Assembly: GCA_007376385.1 (NCBI GenBank) | Contig: VMGC01000004.1 | Location: 32,001 to 96,000 of the forward strand | DNA length: 64,000 bases | Direction: 5' to 3' | Origin: Parcubacteria group bacterium Gr01-1014_8 | GTDB lineage: Bacteria > Patescibacteriota > Minisyncoccia > Phycocordibacterales > UBA2100 | Part shown: one piece after another, positions 1-27,774 of the stretch | Layout: each line of letters starts with the position of its first letter | How positions within the stretch are numbered: the stretch's first letter is position 1 | The notes under the pieces: model-generated | Seen by the model: only the letters and a program-made list of their open reading frames with translations | The model's database searches: none | Told to the model about the DNA's origin: nothing | Position numbers and translations under genes: made by a program

Positions 1-99
1 ATTTTTTGGAGGGGAATGCAAATGCAAAATCCACTAAGGAGTGCATTGCCCCGCCCGCCCTTGCGCGCACAGGATTATTCTTCGCTTTGCGAAGCTCCC

Positions 100-822: not shown

Positions 823-1170
823 TTAACCAAATACTAACACCTTGTCCGAACTCTCGACCATATTGAGTAAGTCGGACATGGTGGAAATAGGACACATGGC
901 GGTCTCTTTTTTGCCGCGAATTTCCAAGCAAGTACCGCATGCAAAGATTGTTCCTTTCAGTTCTTTATATTCTGCAATTCTCTTTGAAATATCAAAATGT
1001 TCGCCATCAGGAATAGAATCCAATTCCGAACCCTCATTCATCAAGAAAATCTCAACGTGGTGATTAGCTTTGAGTGCGGCGATACCGAGGCGGAACGTGT
1101 TCCATACGTGTTCGGGTTTATTGGATTGTAGGATGATGCCGAGCTTCATAGAGAGTATCTTCGTATCCAT
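823..1170 (-). CDS. DsrE/DsrF-like family small protein
   Basis: 115 aa; length and pattern (lone Cys in GTIFACGTC, alpha/beta layout) resemble the DsrE/YchN fold. Weak assignment. Confidence 0.45.
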   Translation of the reverse strand: MDTKILSMKLGIILQSNKPEHVWNTFRLGIAALKANHHVEIFLMNEGSELDSIPDGEHFDISKRIAEYKELKGTIFACGTCLEIRGKKETAMCPISTMSDLLNMVESSDKVLVFG

Positions 1171-1186
1171 TGATATAATACTTCAT

Positions 1187-2740
1187 ATGCGCTATTTCCT
1201 CTACGCCCGCAAAAGTACGGATGTCGAAGACAAACAGGTGATGTCCATCGAAGGACAGCTCGTTGAACTGCGGGCATTGGCTAAACGTGATGGATTAGAA
1301 ATTGCAGAAGAATTCATTGAAAAGCGAAGCGCGAAGATTCCAGGCCGCCCTGTATTTGAGGACATGTTAAAGCGGATCGAGAAAGACGAAGCGCACGGAA
1401 TTATCTGCTGGAAAATTGATCGTCTTTCACGCAATCCGGTTGATAGCGGGAGAATTAGTTGGCTACTTCAACAGAACATAATCCAGAAGATCGTAACGCA
1501 TGACAAGATATATCTTCCTCACGACAACGTACTCCTCATGTCTGTGGAATTCGGCATGGCGAATCAGTACATCCGAGACTTGAGTGTCAACGTGAAGCGC
1601 GGCCTCCGGCAAAAGGCACGACAAGGCGTATATCCAAGTACCGCGCCCTTGGGCTACCGCAACGACCCGTACACCAAGACCATCGTCGTGGATCGGCGCA
1701 AAGCGCCGCTCGTGCGTAAGGCATTTGAACTCTACGCAAAGAACGGCTCGCGGCTCGAAGACATTGCGCAGTTTCTTTTCGAGCACGGCATCAAGACGGG
1801 AGCGACGCGCGGATGGAGCAAGGGCGGCGGCAGGCCGCTCAAAAAAGACCAGATAACATTCCTGCTCTCTAATCCGTTTTACTTCGGCCACTTCGCCTAC
1901 AGCGGCGAGATGTACGAGGGCACGCATACGCCCATCGTGAGCAAGGAGCTTTTTGACGCGGTGCAAAAAGTCCTCGCGCTTCGCAGTCGTGCGCACCACA
2001 AAGTGGCGAACGAGCCGCAAGCGTATTGCGGCCTTTTGCATTGTGGCGAGTGCGGCTTTTCCATCACCGCCGAGGAGAAATCGAAGCGACAGAAGAACGG
2101 CAACGTACATCGCTACATTTACTATCGCTGTACGAAAAAGAAAGCCGCCGTTCATTGCTCACAGCCGTATGTGCGGGAAGAAGCGCTCGACTCGCAACTC
2201 TCCGGCTTGCTCGCAAAGTTTGTCATGCCCGCGCATTGGGCGAAGGAATTAGACGCAATGGCCGAGCGAGATGCGGCAAGCGCCTCTCAAACCACGGCGG
2301 CGTCCGTCCAAGCGATGCGGGCAAAGATTGCCGAGTTAGACGGCAAAATCGCCCGCATCACCGACCTCTTTGTCGAACAGGATATCGAGCGCGGCGACTA
2401 TCTCGAAAGGAAGCGCGCACTTATGTCCGAAAAGAAGTCGGTGCAGGAGCGAATCCTCCTGCTTGAACGGGACGCCGCCGTGTGGCTCGAACCGATGCAG
2501 AAGTGGATACAAGAGGCGCAAATGCTTGAAGAAATTGCGAAATCCAAAGACTACCCCTCCAAAAAATCCTCCCTCCAAAAAATCTTCGGCTCGAACCTCA
2601 CTCTCCACGCGCGCGAAGCGCGCGGCGTGCCGCAAAATCAGTGGTTTTCTTTGCTCACTGCCAAAGAAAACCACTCCGAAAATAACCTCGTTCCGATACT
2701 TGTGACCTCACGGGGAATCGAACCCCGGTTCCATCCTTGA
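1187..2740 (+). CDS. Large serine recombinase (resolvase/invertase N-terminal domain plus recombinase and zinc-ribbon domains)
   Basis: N-terminal YARKSTDVEDKQ..SIEGQ catalytic-serine motif. Central recombinase domain followed by a Cys cluster (CGLLHCGECG...CTKK..HC) and a C-terminal coiled coil. The start is taken at the internal ATG 1187; the ORF track begins at a TTG at 1070 that overlaps the upstream gene. The 3' end overlaps the tRNA-Glu gene. Confidence 0.8.
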   Translation: MRYFLYARKSTDVEDKQVMSIEGQLVELRALAKRDGLEIAEEFIEKRSAKIPGRPVFEDMLKRIEKDEAHGIICWKIDRLSRNPVDSGRISWLLQQNIIQKIVTHDKIYLPHDNVLLMSVEFGMANQYIRDLSVNVKRGLRQKARQGVYPSTAPLGYRNDPYTKTIVVDRRKAPLVRKAFELYAKNGSRLEDIAQFLFEHGIKTGATRGWSKGGGRPLKKDQITFLLSNPFYFGHFAYSGEMYEGTHTPIVSKELFDAVQKVLALRSRAHHKVANEPQAYCGLLHCGECGFSITAEEKSKRQKNGNVHRYIYYRCTKKKAAVHCSQPYVREEALDSQLSGLLAKFVMPAHWAKELDAMAERDAASASQTTAASVQAMRAKIAELDGKIARITDLFVEQDIERGDYLERKRALMSEKKSVQERILLLERDAAVWLEPMQKWIQEAQMLEEIAKSKDYPSKKSSLQKIFGSNLTLHAREARGVPQNQWFSLLTAKENHSENNLVPILVTSRGIEPRFHP

Positions 2741-2776
2741 GAAGGATGTGTCCTAGCCGCTAGACGATGAGGCCGT
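2705..2776 (-). tRNA. tRNA-Glu (anticodon CUC)
   Basis: The reverse complement folds as a 72-nt cloverleaf: acceptor GGCCTCA/TGAGGTC, D-arm GTCT-AGCGGCTA-GGAC, anticodon stem CATCC/GGATG with loop TTCTCAA (CTC), T-arm CGGGG-TTCGATT-CCCCG, discriminator A. CCA is not encoded. Confidence 0.8.
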
Positions 2777-2798
2777 CACGGCGAGTATAGAATATACT

Positions 2799-2823
2799 TG
2801 GTTCGATTCCAAGGGACTTACAG
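2799..2823 (+). other. Orphan tRNA 3'-half fragment (T-arm plus acceptor 3' strand) on the opposite strand
   Basis: CTTGG-TTCGATT-CCAAG followed by GGACTTAC. There is no room for a 5' half, because only about 22 nt separate it from the tRNA-Glu gene. Confidence 0.4.
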
Positions 2824-2929
2824 CTTCAAACATCATACGGGGAATCGGTCACGCATAATTTTCGAGTGAAAATTTGCGCGACCCCACCTCACTCGCCCTC
2901 GCTCGTTCCGGTCTTGCGGCGCTACGCTC

Positions 2930-3012
2930 ACTCGCGCCTCACCCCGCTCCATCCTTGAGATACTGGTATAAAGATGTGAATCAGTTTGTCCTAGCCGATA
3001 GCCTGCCCGGCC
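2930..3012 (-). pseudogene. Degenerate tRNA-Glu-like copy (pseudo-tRNA)
   Basis: It shares the anticodon arm and flanks with the tRNA-Glu at 2705-2776 (TCTCAAGGATGGA; CTAGGACA). It lacks the T-loop (CGGGG-TGAGG collapsed) and carries a 12-nt insertion in the anticodon region. Confidence 0.35.
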
Positions 3013-3101
3013 AGGGACGATAGGGCGTTCGAATGTCAAAAATAGCGATTTCGGCAACGACAAGCATGAGATGTTTCTCATTAACGTGCTACAGTTTTTG
3101 T

Positions 3102-3773
3102 ATGACGGATGACCGTAGCGGCTCCAGGCTCGACCAGATGACGAGAGCGCAACAGATAACTGCACTTTTTCCGAAGCTTACAGCGCTGGATGGGCAGTAC
3201 ACTGCGCTCTGGGATGAGATGCAGGGACTTTTTCTCGAGAAAAAGATAGGCGGCGCGTTTGCTCCCATTATCGAGCATCGCAGGCGGCAGTTGAAGACTC
3301 CTCGAAAAATGATACGGGAAAATATTCTTGGCGCTCGCACGACTCTCTTAAGCGGCGGCACGGCACCGCTTGCCCCGCTCTATCTTTCGGACCTGCAGCA
3401 CCGATTTGCAGGGATTGAAAGTATGATCCAGCGCGCACGTACGATCGCGCGGGACCTAACAGAACTTCTTGGTCTCGTGCGAAGTCAGGGTGACATCGGG
3501 CAGCTTATGCGGCATGCGGAGGCTTTTTGGACGGAGCATCAGCGCGCACAAGAGCATTTACTCGAAGACATACCGCATCGTGACACTATTTCGAGTGTTG
3601 TTGTTCTTGAACAGCGATTGAGGCACGCCACAAGAGAAATCCCGCTTGTTCGCTCATTTGCAGGAAGCGGGGCGCCGCGTGCCGAGATAGAAGCTGAAGT
3701 TACCAAGCTCACTAAAGCGATAGACTACACCGGCCGCCGGATACAGCGAGTAAAAAAAGAATTGGGATACTGA
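3102..3773 (+). CDS. Hypothetical protein (all-helical, no recognisable motif)
   Basis: Long ORF with coding-like composition. Start chosen at the internal ATG (MTDDRSG) downstream of the tRNA debris. Confidence 0.5.
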   Translation: MTDDRSGSRLDQMTRAQQITALFPKLTALDGQYTALWDEMQGLFLEKKIGGAFAPIIEHRRRQLKTPRKMIRENILGARTTLLSGGTAPLAPLYLSDLQHRFAGIESMIQRARTIARDLTELLGLVRSQGDIGQLMRHAEAFWTEHQRAQEHLLEDIPHRDTISSVVVLEQRLRHATREIPLVRSFAGSGAPRAEIEAEVTKLTKAIDYTGRRIQRVKKELGY

Positions 3774-3820
3774 CGTGTTTAAAAGTCGAGAATATAAGCG
3801 CCTCTCGCTCGGGCGGCCCG

Positions 3821-4993
3821 TCATTCTTCGGATTGTTTTCCCAATCGTTTTCCTGTCCTTTCGCGATTAACTGTTCTGCTATGGATCTTTTCATACGCGA
3901 GCCAAGCTTCCTCCAGGTCGTGCGAAGTAGCTGCAAGTTTAAAAGAGATGGGACGTCCCTGCTCGTCGGTCATTTCATTGAATGCCCGTATGACTTCCGT
4001 ATAGCCGCTAACATCTTTGCGATCACGCGGGTTCTCGTGCCAATGAGCTGCAAATATATCCGAATAGAATCGATTCTGCAGGTCGTGTATCTCATGCCAA
4101 TTGCTTTCCGGTTTATACGTAAAGCCGACATCAAGCATGGAAGCGGTGTAGTCTATTGGACTTTTTGATCCCTTGAGCAGAGAAATATCGGTTGCGCCCT
4201 GTGTTGACAGGCCTTTTGCGGAATCAAACCCAAGATCATGCCCCATTTGAAGAGCCAAAAAAAGCAGTAGCCGCTGGGGCGATACTTTGTACTTGTCTAA
4301 AAAATCATCGCGGATAGTTTTCAGCTCCTTCAGCCGCTCTTCTTTGCCATGACTCTTGTGACCGCTGCCGGTGCGGACTATCCGGAAGACGCGCTCGCCG
4401 GATGGTGTGATTTCCATATCAACGCCAACGCGCCACATCTCTCCGTGGGTGCTCTGGCTGACATTTCGCGGGTCATATCCGATGGCAAGATCGATGGAAA
4501 ATGTTCCTGACCCGCTTTGACCTTTTACAGAAAAATAGTACCCAGGCAGCGAAAGCTGGTTCTTTAATATGCGTCCACGCCATGATGGCTCATCACTCGT
4601 TGCGAACATGTCTTTTCCAAAAAGACCGGACCAAAAATTATAGTTCGCCTTCATGTTCGAGAACATCCTTTCAACAGGTGTGTCCTGGTCAGCCAGATAA
4701 ACCAAATTCCCCCGTCCGAAAAAATTATCCGGCAATTTGTCTTTTAGCCACGCGGCAAACGTCAATGCCTCCTCGAGGTCAGCACGTTTATTAGCCCAAC
4801 CGGCTCTGTTCATGAATAGGTTCAGACCATTCGCAGTAGCAGAATCAATATTTTGTCGTTCGCAGAATGTGCGAATGACGCGCCATCTTTCCTGCGGCGA
4901 TACATCCTGATCCCGCGACTGGAGCTCCGTACTCACGAACGTCCGTACTTGGAGAAGGGTAGCCTCCAATTGCCGTTGTTCCTCAAAAACCAT
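3821..4993 (-). CDS. Hypothetical protein (390 aa), contains a degenerate P-loop-like GQSGSGT segment
   Basis: Long ORF convergent with 3102-3773. No confident family assignment from sequence alone. Confidence 0.55.
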   Translation of the reverse strand: MVFEEQRQLEATLLQVRTFVSTELQSRDQDVSPQERWRVIRTFCERQNIDSATANGLNLFMNRAGWANKRADLEEALTFAAWLKDKLPDNFFGRGNLVYLADQDTPVERMFSNMKANYNFWSGLFGKDMFATSDEPSWRGRILKNQLSLPGYYFSVKGQSGSGTFSIDLAIGYDPRNVSQSTHGEMWRVGVDMEITPSGERVFRIVRTGSGHKSHGKEERLKELKTIRDDFLDKYKVSPQRLLLFLALQMGHDLGFDSAKGLSTQGATDISLLKGSKSPIDYTASMLDVGFTYKPESNWHEIHDLQNRFYSDIFAAHWHENPRDRKDVSGYTEVIRAFNEMTDEQGRPISFKLAATSHDLEEAWLAYEKIHSRTVNRERTGKRLGKQSEE

Positions 4994-5043
4994 ATGAAAA
5001 GTCTAGCAGGAAAAGAAGGCGCGAACCATGATACTCTGAGCGA

Positions 5044-7262
<2,219 letters not shown>

Positions 7263-7279
7263 TTCTCATATTTACTTAC

Positions 7280-8170
7280 ATGCGTCCGGCTTTTGTCGTT
7301 GAGTTTGCAACTCCAAAAAAATATCAGCTGAGAGGGTTGTGGTTTGGTCCAAGAAAACCGAAGTGTGCCATCGTGTGGATACATGGTCTCGGTGGTTCAG
7401 CGTTCAGTATGGGCTCGGTTGTTGAGAAATTAGTTAACAAAGACACGGCAGTTCTCACTTTTAATAACCGCGGATTTGAACGGGTTGCTGAAATAAAAAG
7501 AAAAATCGGCAAGAAAACAACATGGACGCGAGCGGGAGCCGCGCACGAGGTTTTTACGGATTGCCTCGATGATGTGCAAGGGGCCGTGAATGTTGCACGA
7601 AAGAGCGGCGCAAAAAATATCTATGTAGGCGGGCAATCTACAGGCTGCCAAAAATCAATCTATTGGGCGAGTACGGCAAAAGGCGGACAACGAATAAAGG
7701 GAATAATTCTCCTTGCACCAGTATCTGACTATGCCGGTGCGGCAAAGCGGCACGGAAAGAAAAAAATAGAGCGCGGTATCGCGTATGCTCGCCGGTTGAT
7801 CAAACAAGGCCGGAATCACGATTTGCTGCCACCATCTGTATGGTCTGAAGAATTGGATGATGCGCAGCGATTTTTGTCTCTCTATACGCCTGATAGCGTC
7901 GAAGAGATTTTTAGTTATGCGCTTCCCATGAAAGCCCCAAAAGTTCTGAAGTCCGTGAAAGTCCCAATTCTGACGCTGTGGGCGGGAAAAGATGAATATA
8001 CAGACAGGCCAGCGAAAAAAATTGAAGAATGGTTCAAAAAACATGTGAACGGCAACATTCTTACGTTTGCGACCATACAGGGCGCAACGCATGGATTCCG
8101 GAACAAAGAGAAGATAGTTGCACGAATGGTGCAACGATGGATGGCGCACAAGAGCGGGGCCAATTATTAA
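7280..8170 (+). CDS. Alpha/beta-hydrolase fold protein
   Basis: HGLGGS oxyanion-type motif and a GQSTG nucleophile elbow (GxSxG). Start taken at the ATG at 7280 after the ahcY stop. Confidence 0.65.
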   Translation: MRPAFVVEFATPKKYQLRGLWFGPRKPKCAIVWIHGLGGSAFSMGSVVEKLVNKDTAVLTFNNRGFERVAEIKRKIGKKTTWTRAGAAHEVFTDCLDDVQGAVNVARKSGAKNIYVGGQSTGCQKSIYWASTAKGGQRIKGIILLAPVSDYAGAAKRHGKKKIERGIAYARRLIKQGRNHDLLPPSVWSEELDDAQRFLSLYTPDSVEEIFSYALPMKAPKVLKSVKVPILTLWAGKDEYTDRPAKKIEEWFKKHVNGNILTFATIQGATHGFRNKEKIVARMVQRWMAHKSGANY

Positions 8171-11538: not shown

Positions 11539-13110
11539 ATGGATTCAAAAGTTGTTCAAAAAATAGTAAATGAGATAGAAAAGTATCAACCGAAGGTTGA
11601 GAGCACACACGTCGGGCATGTGACGGCTGTGGGGGATGGAGTCGTCGCAATTGACGGACTATCGAAAGCGGTCATGAGCGAGATCGTGGAATTCGAGGAG
11701 ACGGGAGGAAAATCTTTGAAGGATTCAATGGAGACAGGCGGCACATTGTATGGCCTTGTGCTCAACTTGGAAGAAGACAGTGTGCGTGCGACGATCCTCG
11801 GTGATTCTGCAAGGGTTAGCGAGGGCATGACCGTAAAGTCAACCGGCCGGATCTTGTCGGTACCATCCGGGGATGAGCTACTTGGCCGCGTTGTGAACGC
11901 GCTCGGCGAACCAATTGATGGCAAAGGCCCTTTCAAGAATCCGACCATGATGCCCGTTGAGCGCGAAGCGTATGGCGTTATCTTTCGAAAATCAGTTTCG
12001 GTGCCTCTGCAGACCGGTGTAAAAGCAATCGACGCGACGATCCCGATAGGCCGCGGACAGCGAGAACTCATCATCGGCGACCGCTCGACTGGAAAAACAA
12101 CTATTGCCATCGATACTATCATCAATCAGAAGAATGAACCTGCCGAAAAAAGGCCCATTTGCATCTATGTCGCCATCGGTCAAAAGGAATCAAAAACAGC
12201 GCGTATCGTTGCGCAGCTGAGCGGGGAGGGGGCAATGGGGTACACAATTATCGTGGATGCACCTGCGTCTGCTCCCGCGGCGCTGCAATTTCTTGCACCA
12301 TTCGCTGGAGCTGCTATTGGCGAATACTTCATGGACCGAGGGAAGGACGTCTTGATAATTTATGACGACCTTTCAAAGCAGGCCGTCGCATACCGCCAGC
12401 TCTCACTTCTCCTCCGCCGACCGCCTGGTCGCGAGGCATATCCGGGGGACATCTTTTACCTGCATTCGCGCCTTTTGGAGAGGGCAGCGCGGCTCTCTGA
12501 TGAAAAAGGAGGCGGTTCGCTTACCGCGCTTCCGATCATTGAAACTCTGGACGGCGACATTTCTGCCTACATTCCAACAAACGTCATTTCCATCACCGAC
12601 GGTCAGATATTCCTAACAGCAGATCTCTTCAACAAAGGAGTGCGTCCGGCAGTGGATGTTGGTACCTCCGTATCCCGTGTCGGTTCTGCGGCTCAGACGA
12701 AAGCGATGAAAAGCGTAGCAGGAACACTTCGATTGGAACTGGCTCAATTCCGCGAACTCGAAGCGTTCATGCAATTTGCGCAGGACCTGGACAAAGCAAC
12801 TGCGGAGAAGATCGAAACCGGCCGCCGTATGGTGGAAGTGTTGAAGCAAAAGAACGGCGAACCGATGCCTCTTGAGCGGCAAGTTGTTGCCATTTACGCG
12901 GCAGGACAGAGGTTTTTTGCGGATGCTCCGGCAGCAAAAGTGACGGCAGTAGAGAAGAGACTTCTTGAATTCTTTGATAATAGATATTCTGAAGTTTTTA
13001 AAGCTATTAAAGAAAGAGGCATTATCGGCGATGACACGAAGAAGTTGCTCGATAAGGGGCTTCAAGAATTCAAGCAAGCTCAAAAAGAACTCTTCTCCCT
13101 TGCGAAATAG
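11539..13110 (+). CDS. atpA: F0F1 ATP synthase subunit alpha
   Basis: Walker [10 protein letters not shown] and full-length alpha-subunit similarity. Confidence 0.95.
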
Positions 13111-13113
13111 AGT

Positions 13114-14028
13114 ATGGCGGGATTGAAGAACATCAAGTTGAAGATTCAATCCGTAAAGAAGACCTCCACGGTAACCCGTGCGATGGAGGCGGTTTCTGCC
13201 GTAAAGATGCGAAAGGCGCAGCAGCGCGCTTTGACGGCAAGGCCGTACGCACTTTCTGCTTTCCGCGTTCTTCGCGGACTTTCAGGGAGCGTTGACCTCT
13301 TGAGCCATCCCTTAATGACTGAAAGAAAGGAGGGGAGAATTGCGGTCTTGTTGATAACGAGCGACAAAGGCCTCGCGGGCAGTTTGAATAGCGCAGTCCT
13401 TAAGAAAGTGGAGAATTTCATTAAAGGCAGAAATCTTAAACGAGACGACCTTATTTTTCTCTGTCTCGGAAAGCGCGGCTACGAATTCGCGCAGGCGCGC
13501 GGGTACAAAGTCGCGCATCGCCATATAAATATTTCGGACGATATCGACCTTGAAGAATTCGAGCAGATAACGAAACAAATAACGACACTGTATAACGACG
13601 GGATCGTGCGCGATGTGCATGCTGCATATACGAACTATGTTTCAACCTTCGAACAGCGCGCCGCGATGCACAAGATCCTTCCACTTTCGAGACTCATCGT
13701 TGAGCACATAGTTGCAGATATTGCGACGCCACGAGGAAAACTGTTAGACAAATTTGAGGCTGACGCCGTCCCAACATACATGGTAGAGCCCGATGCATCG
13801 GAAGTATTCACAATGCTTTTGCCGTTGCTCGTGAATGTGGCCATCTTTCACAAGCTATTGGAATCGAAAGCATCAGAACACTCGGCACGCATGGTTGCCA
13901 TGAAGAGCGCAACCGATAAGGCAAAGGAAATGTCACAAATTCTTACTCGCAAATTCAACAAGATCCGCCAAGCGGCGATCACGCGTGAAGTTTCAGAAAT
14001 TACAAGCGGTATCGAGGCGATGAAATAG
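13114..14028 (+). CDS. atpG: F0F1 ATP synthase subunit gamma
   Basis: Conserved N-terminal (IKLKIQSVKKTSTVTRAMEAVSAVKMRKAQ) and C-terminal helices typical of gamma. Confidence 0.9.
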   Translation: MAGLKNIKLKIQSVKKTSTVTRAMEAVSAVKMRKAQQRALTARPYALSAFRVLRGLSGSVDLLSHPLMTERKEGRIAVLLITSDKGLAGSLNSAVLKKVENFIKGRNLKRDDLIFLCLGKRGYEFAQARGYKVAHRHINISDDIDLEEFEQITKQITTLYNDGIVRDVHAAYTNYVSTFEQRAAMHKILPLSRLIVEHIVADIATPRGKLLDKFEADAVPTYMVEPDASEVFTMLLPLLVNVAIFHKLLESKASEHSARMVAMKSATDKAKEMSQILTRKFNKIRQAAITREVSEITSGIEAMK

Positions 14029-26832: not shown

Positions 26833-27774
26833 ATGCGAGAGCAAAAATTACCAAAATATTTACAGCCGATGCTCGCGACGCTCATCGACGCGCCGTTTGA
26901 CGATGCTGAGTGGGTGTACGAAACCAAGTGGGACGGTTTTCGCATTGTTGCCGAGATAAAGCCCGGCGCGGTTACATTATATTCGCGTAACGGTCAGGTC
27001 ATGAGCGAACGATACAAGCCTGTAGCGATGGCGCTTTCAAAAATTCATCACGACGCGGTCATAGACGGCGAGCTGGTCGCGCTCGACAGGCAAGGCGTAT
27101 CGCGTTTTCAGCTGTTGCAAAATGCGTTGAAAACAAAAGTTGACCTGCACTATTGTATTTTTGACGTGATGTTCCTAGATGGTAAAGACCTTCGCGGCCT
27201 CTCTCTCGTCGAACGCAAGGAACAACTAAAAAGGATTATTCCGAATGATACGTTGTTGCGATATAGCGAACATCGTTTTGAACACGGAACAAGATACTTT
27301 AATGAGGCAAAAAAGAAAAAGGAGGAAGGCATCATGGCAAAACGGGCAGAGAGTAAGTATCTTTCTGGCAAGCGCTCAATGGCGTGGCTGAAGATCAAGA
27401 CTGGCTCGAGGCAGGAGGTCGTCATCGTCGGCTTTACTGCCCCCAAACGTTCTCGTAAATATTTCGGCTCCTTGGCGCTCGCAGTTCACGAAACCGGCCG
27501 GTCGAGCGGGAAAAAATGGCGCTATGTCGGGCATGTCGGCACAGGATTTGATGCAGCTGCCTTGAATGAGATACATGGGAAATTAGAACATTTGAGGACA
27601 CGGCATTCGCCGTTCGATACGGCGGTGAAATATGAGTCAACGACAACATGGGTGAAGCCAAAGCTTGTTGGCGAAGTGAAATTCACTGAATGGACGGACA
27701 AAGGGGAGATGCGGCATCCTGCGTTCATGGGGCTTAGAGAGGACAAGAAGCCTGAGGAAGTAGTGCGCGAATAG
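26833..27774 (+). CDS. ATP-dependent DNA ligase (LigD ligase-domain type)
   Basis: Motif I KWDGFR (adenylation lysine). Conserved ligase motifs follow (FDVMFLDG, EGIMAK, WLKIK). Confidence 0.85.
   Translation: MREQKLPKYLQPMLATLIDAPFDDAEWVYETKWDGFRIVAEIKPGAVTLYSRNGQVMSERYKPVAMALSKIHHDAVIDGELVALDRQGVSRFQLLQNALKTKVDLHYCIFDVMFLDGKDLRGLSLVERKEQLKRIIPNDTLLRYSEHRFEHGTRYFNEAKKKKEEGIMAKRAESKYLSGKRSMAWLKIKTGSRQEVVIVGFTAPKRSRKYFGSLALAVHETGRSSGKKWRYVGHVGTGFDAAALNEIHGKLEHLRTRHSPFDTAVKYESTTTWVKPKLVGEVKFTEWTDKGEMRHPAFMGLREDKKPEEVVRE

Follow-up and report, generated by a model that had tools for sequence, protein, structure and literature searches.

The window analyzed here is a 64,000-nt stretch from the genome of Parcubacteria group bacterium Gr01-1014_8 (assembly GCA_007376385.1, contig VMGC01000004.1, positions 32,001 to 96,000), near the start of which an intact gene for a large serine recombinase (LSR) reads into the 3′ end of a tRNA-Glu gene on the opposite strand. 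The arrangement is interpreted below as one end of an integrative element, with the element site attP written as P-O-P′, the target site attB as B-O-B′, the two junctions of an inserted copy as attL (B-O-P′) and attR (P-O-B′), and O denoting the common core. L-numbers designate loci and P-numbers designate clusters of homologues of this LSR family. The features at the junction are:

1187-2740 (ATG at 1187, stop codon at 2738-2740), plus strand: intact LSR gene, 517 aa (Pfam PF00239, PF07508, and PF13408)
2571-2706, plus strand: P arm, the element-side attachment arm (right-hand inverted repeat, IR_R), within the last ~45 codons of the LSR, detected as an inverted repeat with positions 8724-8827 of L001
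2640-2675, no strand: palindrome within the P arm, with perfect 14-bp halves separated by an 8-nt spacer, from an inverted-repeat search
2702-2706, no strand: putative crossover core O (GTGAC), the last acceptor bases and discriminator of the tRNA-Glu, placed by analogy with three-site alignments at eight loci
2702-2774 (ARAGORN) or 2703-2774 (Rfam), minus strand: intact tRNA-Glu(CUC), the B′ arm of attR (Rfam 58.1 bits, gathering score 29)

The window protein possesses an N-terminal Resolvase domain (PF00239, E 1.3e-20, residues 4-148), followed by a Recombinase domain (PF07508, E 8.5e-17) and a zinc ribbon (Zn_ribbon_recom, PF13408, E 4.7e-10). Among 25 aligned family members, R8 and S10 of the resolvase-type catalytic domain, a domain with a serine nucleophile, and the zinc-ribbon cysteines C286, C289, C315, and C324 are invariant, and the window LSR has every family-invariant residue. 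The nearest solved structures are SPbeta SprA/YokA (E 1.6e-11, with the SprA match reaching residue 421) and the A118 integrase. The last 38-39 nt of the LSR open reading frame (ORF) are the antisense of the tRNA-Glu acceptor and T-arm, such that the encoded peptide ends in ..VTSRGIEPRFHP, and this tRNA is the sole one called by ARAGORN within the window. An earlier description made without database searches (the sequence-only reading) had recognized the overlap but set it at 36 nt with the tRNA at 2705-2776, numbers that are replaced by the ARAGORN and Rfam boundaries. The element sits to the left of the tRNA-Glu and its attachment arm is the LSR's own 3′ coding end.

A scan of the GTDB species representatives with the recombinase returned at least 590 matches, from which 80 loci were kept for analysis, and the 120 best clusters of homologues (62-100% identity) were all from Patescibacteria-type sources. 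Among the C-termini of these clusters, 86 are tRNA-antisense peptides (e.g., GIEPRF, GLEPT, and RLELS), 10 have a conserved alternative native tail ([LVI]Y..ARTYF..), and 24 are truncated, frameshifted, or read through. ARAGORN called an opposite-strand tRNA in or next to the ORF end at 45 of the 65 loci where that end lies on the contig, covering 12 isotypes (Thr, 13; Gln, 7; Glu, 6; Leu, 6; Ile, 3; Tyr, Val, and Arg, 2 each; Lys, Cys, Asn, and Gly, 1 each), and Rfam revealed further junction tRNAs at L010, L016, L031, and L033. Because the ORF ends at an opposite-strand tRNA at so many loci and most clusters end in tRNA-antisense peptides, the overlap is a trait of the family and not chance. 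Near-identical recombinases possess different tRNA-derived tails (P0039 versus P0072-74, 98.8%; P0109 versus P0110, 95.8%), several single metagenome-assembled genomes (MAGs) have two copies at different tRNAs (e.g., L007/L027 and L009/L022), and LSRs 87-90% identical to that of the window are present at tRNA-Glu genes in other genomic contexts (L082-L084). At L046, a group I intron (6459-6746, minus strand; Rfam 82 bits) directly adjoins the recombinase junction, and the target is probably an intron-containing tRNA missed by ARAGORN. Four loci likewise without a called tRNA (L021, L024, L044, and L047) have ..SFAYT.. read-through peptides in common.

P, the final 100-170 nt of the recombinase ORF, reappears in inverted orientation upstream of the gene at 53 loci, with 72-100% identity and at a distance of 118 nt to 9 kb from it. 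Of the 35 loci that have an inverted repeat as well as a called tRNA, 30 have the outer edge of the gene-end repeat at +2 to +6 nt, counted inward from the 3′ end of the tRNA. Outside of the upstream P copy lie a conserved tail, P′, and then a downstream region, D, and at eight loci (L006, L007, L020, L028, L037, L044, L054, and L062) a second P′ and D copy (150-300 nt, plus strand, ~100% identical) occurs 2.3-8 kb further left, ending at exactly the same point. Three-site alignments at these eight loci resolve the sites as attL (B-O-P′), an internal inverted site (P-copy-O-P′), and attR (P-O-B′, with the tRNA as B′), with a common core of only 3-5 nt (GGTGA, GTGA, GAG, GCTC, GTG, TGGAG, GGTAC, and GTG), B arms that are unrelated to P, and no long homology shared between the sites. 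For L006, the B arm holds a GC hairpin and a T-run on the tRNA strand, and joining B-O-B′ restores tRNA-Glu-CCA followed by a terminator. Such junctions are what would be expected if integration were conservative and site-specific and used a very short core, in the manner of serine integrases. The left crossover also coincides with breaks in the assemblies, as contigs end ~139 nt (k = 141 assemblies) or ~51 nt (k = 55) past it, i.e., about k-2, including at the starts of L003, L010, L012, L017, L021, L030, L053, and others, as expected of a de Bruijn graph if P′ and D are repeated. A transposon with terminal inverted repeats, in which the segment between the left-hand repeat (IR_L) and IR_R moves alone, was considered and rejected, as every IR_L found runs into P′ and never into host DNA, and attL has the form B-O-P′.

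With this junction anatomy conserved across the family, it is considered likely that the window LSR belongs to a Patescibacteria-wide family of integrative elements that carry cargo and insert at the extreme 3′ ends of tRNA genes; the recombinase would catalyze the insertion and members may be mobile at present. In the mechanism proposed, attP would lie inside of the recombinase gene, with P formed by the last ~110-170 nt of the ORF, O corresponding to the last acceptor base(s), the discriminator, and the (C)CA of the tRNA (3-5 nt), and P′ coding for the native C-terminal tail (..LY..ARTYF..stop). Exchange at the 3′ end of a tRNA gene (attB) would keep the tRNA intact, swap the native tail for a read-through into the antisense tRNA (attR, as in the window), and set P′ beside the former trailer or terminator of the tRNA (attL), with the inverted P-copy-O-P′ upstream of the recombinase as a second site. 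By analogy with the eight aligned loci, the crossover core in the window would be GTGAC (2702-2706), of which TGAC is also present at the window element's own inverted site. The possibility that the LY..ARTYF tail simply marks an un-integrated attP was only partly right, as the tail is P′, but it mostly occurs beside an inverted partial gene-end copy in an integrated element. That the native tail is conserved in the protein may be no more than a consequence of the DNA site that it encodes.

The arms also suggest how targets are chosen. P′ holds GAAC(C/T)TATTT, which codes for ..ARTYF, and the tRNA arm holds the antisense of the T-loop, (T)CGAAC(C). In most loci, with positions counted from the point of divergence, the first base of GAAC is at +15 for B′ and +19 for P′, and the difference is +4 wherever both are readable. 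The T-loop-like motif of P′, 4 nt further from the core, would then match the attP/attB offset expected for the motif of the zinc-ribbon domain (ZD), which in A118-type integrases is 5 bp nearer the center in attB than in attP (Rutherford et al., PMC3783163), and the ZD is predicted to bind GAAC. As the core includes the discriminator and, in many members, CCA, the enzyme is predicted to read the T-loop and the discriminator/CCA end, which are common to all tRNAs and would explain the many isotypes. On the L027 contig, an unoccupied tRNA-Thr(CGU) (1456-1531, minus strand) accompanies an occupied tRNA-Thr, and its 3′ flank (..ATTTTGGAG, then CC) has 9 nt in common with the end of the element P arm; in that subgroup, therefore, the B and P arms are alike in the stretch adjoining the core.

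Left of the recombinase, the window contains the remaining parts of the element:

1-17, minus strand: inner end of the inverted copy of the LSR 3′ end (IR_L, P-copy), from tblastn and from blastn on L001
100-810, minus strand: cargo gene for a 236-aa membrane protein with a C-terminal SHOCT domain (Pfam PF09851), between IR_L and the LSR
823-1170, minus strand: cargo gene for a DsrE/DsrF-like protein, 108-115 aa (Pfam PF02635)

Just beyond the left edge of the window (L001 8649-8831) are the rest of IR_L, the conserved tail P′, and the downstream region, and positions 1-14 match 2554-2567 perfectly in inverted orientation. Within the LSR ORF, a direct repeat with a 16-nt spacing, CTCCAAAAAATC(C/T)TC (2554-2591, encoding PSKKSSLQKIF), lies roughly where the inverted repeat ends on its inner side, and many of the upstream copies have a disrupted frame at this point. 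The inverted copy has 76% identity over 104 nt to the LSR gene's own end and is closer to another member of the family (87% aa identity to P0028). A DsrE gene is likewise situated between IR_L and the recombinase in L082, for which the LSR is 90% identical to that of the window. The left flank of the element soon reaches the mraZ-rsmH-PBP-mur cluster. The window copy has an intact attR and enzyme and a left side that has decayed or been rearranged, and, as the inverted site has diverged and attL was not found, it is probably fixed in place and no longer excisable. The sequence-only reading had raised the possibility of a small integrative element or its remnant, and the evidence supports it; the recombinase reading into a tRNA is the conserved attR of a large family of LSR elements, and the window copy looks like a remnant.

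With an internal inverted attP-like site present, inverted repeats enclose the recombinase unit and also the cargo arc, and inversions at these repeats would regenerate the same types of sites. The other junction state, in which the recombinase continues through P-O-P′ (rec-P-O-P′), is found on contigs L085, L086, L088, and L089. L088 has the order inverted P-copy, cargo, rec-P-O-P′D, a 6-kb arc, and inverted D, and both a circle and a flipped integrated copy fit this contig, which ends in repeats. The L088 arc (3118-7694) encodes an N6/N4 methyltransferase, a DEAD/ResIII helicase, tRNA-Phe, and tRNA-Arg, and looks like defense-type cargo accompanied by tRNAs. In L066, the gene ending just upstream of a native-tail recombinase (1200-1680) resembles the C-terminus of a reverse transcriptase/maturase (..YVTGWKQYY..); the contig is binned as Thermodesulfobacteriota, probably by mis-binning. 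A further trait of the P arm is a hairpin with a perfect stem of at least 7 bp and a loop of 3-10 nt, starting 57-67 nt before O in ~40 of 53 members (75% of the 53 P arms versus 8% of control windows from the same ORFs) and formed by 33 different arm sequences; the palindrome at 2640-2675 is the form that it takes in the window. The P palindrome was rejected as a terminator for either the tRNA or the recombinase, with A/T runs on the wrong side in both directions. It is conceivable, though rather unlikely, that the whole belongs to a class of self-contained LSR modules not recognized before, in which the enzyme reads the universal tRNA end with attP in its own ORF, where the inverted attP flips the element between an enzyme with a native tail and one with a tRNA-antisense tail; this would switch activity or direction without a separate directionality factor, with the covarying P-arm hairpin as part of the control.

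The same repeats could be taken to indicate that the recombinase is mainly a resident DNA invertase, a phase-variation switch that flips the repeat-bounded segment or the cargo arc and merely adjoins a tRNA. Inverted repeats of 100-170 nt at 53 loci, a second inverted pair flanking the arc, the existence of both junction states (rec-P-O-tRNA and rec-P-O-P′), and arcs that in some cases code for secreted or membrane proteins would all agree with such a switch. Nevertheless, attL junctions with unrelated B arms denote insertion and not inversion alone, the targets extend over 12 tRNA isotypes with near-identical recombinases at different tRNAs, and the architecture is that of an LSR and not of a small invertase, so that a role mainly in inversion is improbable. 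Inversion and integration are compatible with each other.

To the right of the tRNA-Glu are several tRNA-like fragments, which under the proposed mechanism would be scars of earlier insertions:

2797-2823, plus strand: orphan tRNA 3′ half (T-arm and acceptor strand), one of three perfect T-arm patterns in the 64 kb
2837-2847, plus strand: 11-nt repeat of the tRNA-Glu T-stem/loop antisense, ACGGGGAATCG, also at 2710-2720 in the tRNA
2902-3027, plus strand: putative older attR scar, 18 nt of P arm (2902-2919) and then a degenerate minus-strand tRNA-Glu, from local alignments with shuffle controls

The degenerate tRNA-Glu is without a T-arm, is interrupted by inserted sequence in the region of the anticodon stem and again at 3002-3015 (14 nt), and reaches ~3027 if the latter insertion is allowed. 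Aligned to the intact tRNA-Glu it scores 41 (shuffles, 17.9 ± 3.6; 0 of 300 reach it), and the junction (P and tRNA-Glu) aligned to 2902-3002 scores 55 (shuffles, 25 ± 4.4; 0 of 300), with the alignment opening with CTCGTTCCGGT-CTTGCGG opposite CTCGTTCCGATACTTGTG of the P arm. Positions 2902-2919 match the final 18 nt of the LSR ORF before the tRNA; for this P part by itself, 16 of 1000 shuffles score as well. Because this piece of P arm is kept just 5′ of its tRNA end, the degenerate tRNA-Glu is read as a degenerate attR, left by an earlier insertion next to a copy of tRNA-Glu whose T-arm later disappeared and which acquired insertions. The sequence-only reading had placed this copy at 2930-3012 with a 12-nt insertion; the copy itself is real with the revised extent and insertion given above, and the idea of a repeatedly used integration site is strengthened by the recombinase arm in the right place.

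The other fragments are less readily assigned. The orphan T-arm reads CTTGG-TTCGATT-CCAAG (2797-2813, plus strand), with GGACTTA after it. TTCRANN enclosed by a perfect 5-bp stem is found just three times on both strands of the 64 kb, in the true tRNA, in the orphan, and at 27608-27624 (plus strand, CGCCG-TTCGATA-CGGCG), where no tRNA is called and the pattern is possibly due to chance. The alignment of the orphan T-arm to the minus-strand junction is not significant (48 of 300 shuffles equal it), and the T-arm with its right flank gave nothing significant against the junction and the internal site on both strands. The T-arm that the sequence-only reading saw is thus real, but its derivation from tRNA-Glu does not hold, as the fragment has another sequence and the opposite strand; it may be what is left of the tRNA side of a junction that was inverted and has decayed. 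Together with its left flank, the 11-mer at 2837-2847 resembles the junction (7 of 1000 shuffles reach the alignment score); this is the second copy of ACGGGGAATCG, previously put at 2833-2843, while the copy at 2710-2720 is as described. The GTATAgaaTATAC palindrome is present (2786-2798), and no evidence was found for any meaning. No similarity was detected between 2775-2901 and 3028-3250 that would suggest tandem duplication of the whole attR block. The outcomes that the sequence-only reading named as speaking against it, namely an identical arrangement in related genomes with no empty-site variant and tRNA-like fragments that align to tRNA-Glu no better than chance, were not observed. Intact and degenerate or fragmentary copies of the target tRNA are found by the junction at other loci as well (L016 4303-4361/4457-4530, L008 1940-2009/2325-2397, and L087 11523-11661), and L087 has 24 nt of P′ lodged between P and the tRNA-Leu pieces.

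Fragments of this type might instead represent the decay of a local tRNA gene duplication unrelated to the recombinase, with the overlap an accident of a late stop codon. Rfam called neither the orphan nor the degenerate copy as a tRNA, even at E <= 10, tandem intact and degenerate tRNAs are known from L008, L016, and L087, and serine recombinase insertion itself makes no such copies. Against this, dozens of genomes show such an overlap at differing tRNAs, and the family-wide conservation of the junction already contradicts an accident; the degenerate copy also retains 18 nt from the 3′ arm of the recombinase, placed exactly 5′ of where its tRNA ends. This explanation is highly improbable. Just as improbable is a prophage or phage satellite using a serine integrase, for although most characterized LSRs are phage integrases (PMC3783163), no relatives were found among the 2.9 million viral contigs of IMG/VR, no phage genes lie between the junctions of the eight mapped elements or in the window, and the minimal units are ~1.9 kb.

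Several observations weigh against integrative elements as described here. The cargo between the sites is heterogeneous and a comparison of the arcs revealed no mobility gene common to the elements; no directionality factor or transfer functions were identified and no small gene is conserved among the arcs, though a dedicated search was not made. The reconstructed L006 attB had no match in the JGI metagenomes, and the short native-tail contigs L085, L086, L089, and L090, considered as circular forms, have no terminal overlaps and end in repeats; an excised circle was not seen. For the window element, no attL, P′, or D copy was found in the 8.6 kb to its left, and its inverted copy is merely 76% identical. 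An LSR inserting in the simple way duplicates nothing and does not predict an intact and a degenerate tRNA-Glu in tandem. A further objection is the internal inverted site, as a canonical LSR should not recombine attP with attR, and the core and T-loop reading are derived from sequence only.

A true empty site, the variant for which the sequence-only reading had proposed a comparison with related genomes, was not found. L083 encodes a second LSR (11708-13402, minus strand; 564 aa, 35% identical to that of the window) that reads into tRNA-Ser(CGA), entering from the opposite side of the same tRNA-Glu/tRNA-Ser pair, and in L084 (11707-11792) the same tRNA-Ser is followed by a terminator hairpin in place of the LSR. 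As an occupied/empty pair, L083 and L084 align only at the tRNA itself and not in the flanks, which is not a clean empty site, and the comparison is suggestive only. The strategy of reading through tRNA ends may reach beyond this LSR family.

The family can be set beside several known systems. Phage LSRs (A118/LI, SPbeta SprA, phiC31, and Bxb1) have the same Resolvase, Recombinase, and zinc-ribbon domains, a very short core, and an attB-type distal motif nearer the core, whereas the family here targets the 3′ ends of tRNAs of many isotypes, has an attP within an ORF that rewrites the C-terminus, an extra inverted attP-like site, and no phage context; sequence similarity to the solved LSRs is low (E about 1e-11). 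Tyrosine-integrase islands at tRNA genes differ in that the enzyme here is a serine recombinase and the junctions share 3-5 nt and not a direct repeat of the tRNA 3′ end of at least 15 nt. The small invertases Hin and Gin (~190 aa, with a C-terminal helix-turn-helix), whose short inverted sites lie on either side of an invertible promoter or gene segment, contrast with the 517-aa protein and its LSR domains, and, despite the inverted repeats, both orientations of one locus were not seen. In the Hin/Gin and yeast 2-micron Flp/FRT systems, as in this family, two inverted sites divide the element into two invertible parts, though the enzyme class or architecture differs and the sites here are also integration sites, with inversion only a candidate. 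The SSV1-type archaeal integrases (fusellovirus/pTN3) resemble the family in having attP within the integrase gene, a tRNA target, and an integrase ORF altered by integration, yet they are tyrosine recombinases with a gene split into two large parts and a long tRNA stretch as the core, whereas the elements here swap merely the last ~12-17 codons at a core of 3-5 nt. A likeness also exists to the integration-dependent immunity of the mycobacteriophages BPs and Brujita, where attP is in a coding region and integration changes the C-terminus; there the gene encodes a repressor, the integrase is a tyrosine integrase, and the demonstrated effect is the loss of a degradation tag, whereas any functional effect of the tail swap in this family is speculative. 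Tn4451 (TnpX), Tn5397 (TndX), and IS607 are small cargo elements with a serine recombinase, a circular form, and no target duplication, though they are not known to target tRNA ends, to have the site in the recombinase ORF, or to carry inverted gene-end copies of 100-170 bp. The tycheposons of Prochlorococcus are cargo-carrying integrative elements at tRNA genes, of which 27 of 937 encode an LSR, but are mostly tyrosine-recombinase elements with replication modules, and are not reported to have either an attP in the recombinase ORF or an inverted copy (bioRxiv 10.1101/2020.12.28.424599).

No published description of this LSR family was found in the open-access literature searched, and a large Patescibacteria family of LSR elements at tRNA 3′ ends is apparently undescribed. 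Integrative elements with an LSR are themselves already known; what would be new are elements directed to tRNA ends with attP in the recombinase ORF and an extra inverted site. The mobile elements of the Patescibacteria (also known as the candidate phyla radiation, CPR) are poorly known, and this one family accounts for at least 590 matches in the GTDB species representatives, with variable cargo that includes redox and sulfur genes, methyltransferase and helicase genes, and tRNAs. Dozens of natural sets of attP, attB, attL, and attR can be read directly from the genomes. The family also suggests a plausible target rule of a T-loop motif plus a discriminator/CCA core, and offers an unusual case in which integration edits the C-terminus of the integrase itself. 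For annotation, the elements account for ORFs that run into tRNAs, for assembly breaks at these positions in CPR genomes, and for the tRNA-like debris beside some tRNA genes. Contig ends at k-2 provide a practical signature for finding further elements and a reason for the fragmentation of CPR MAGs at tRNA genes.

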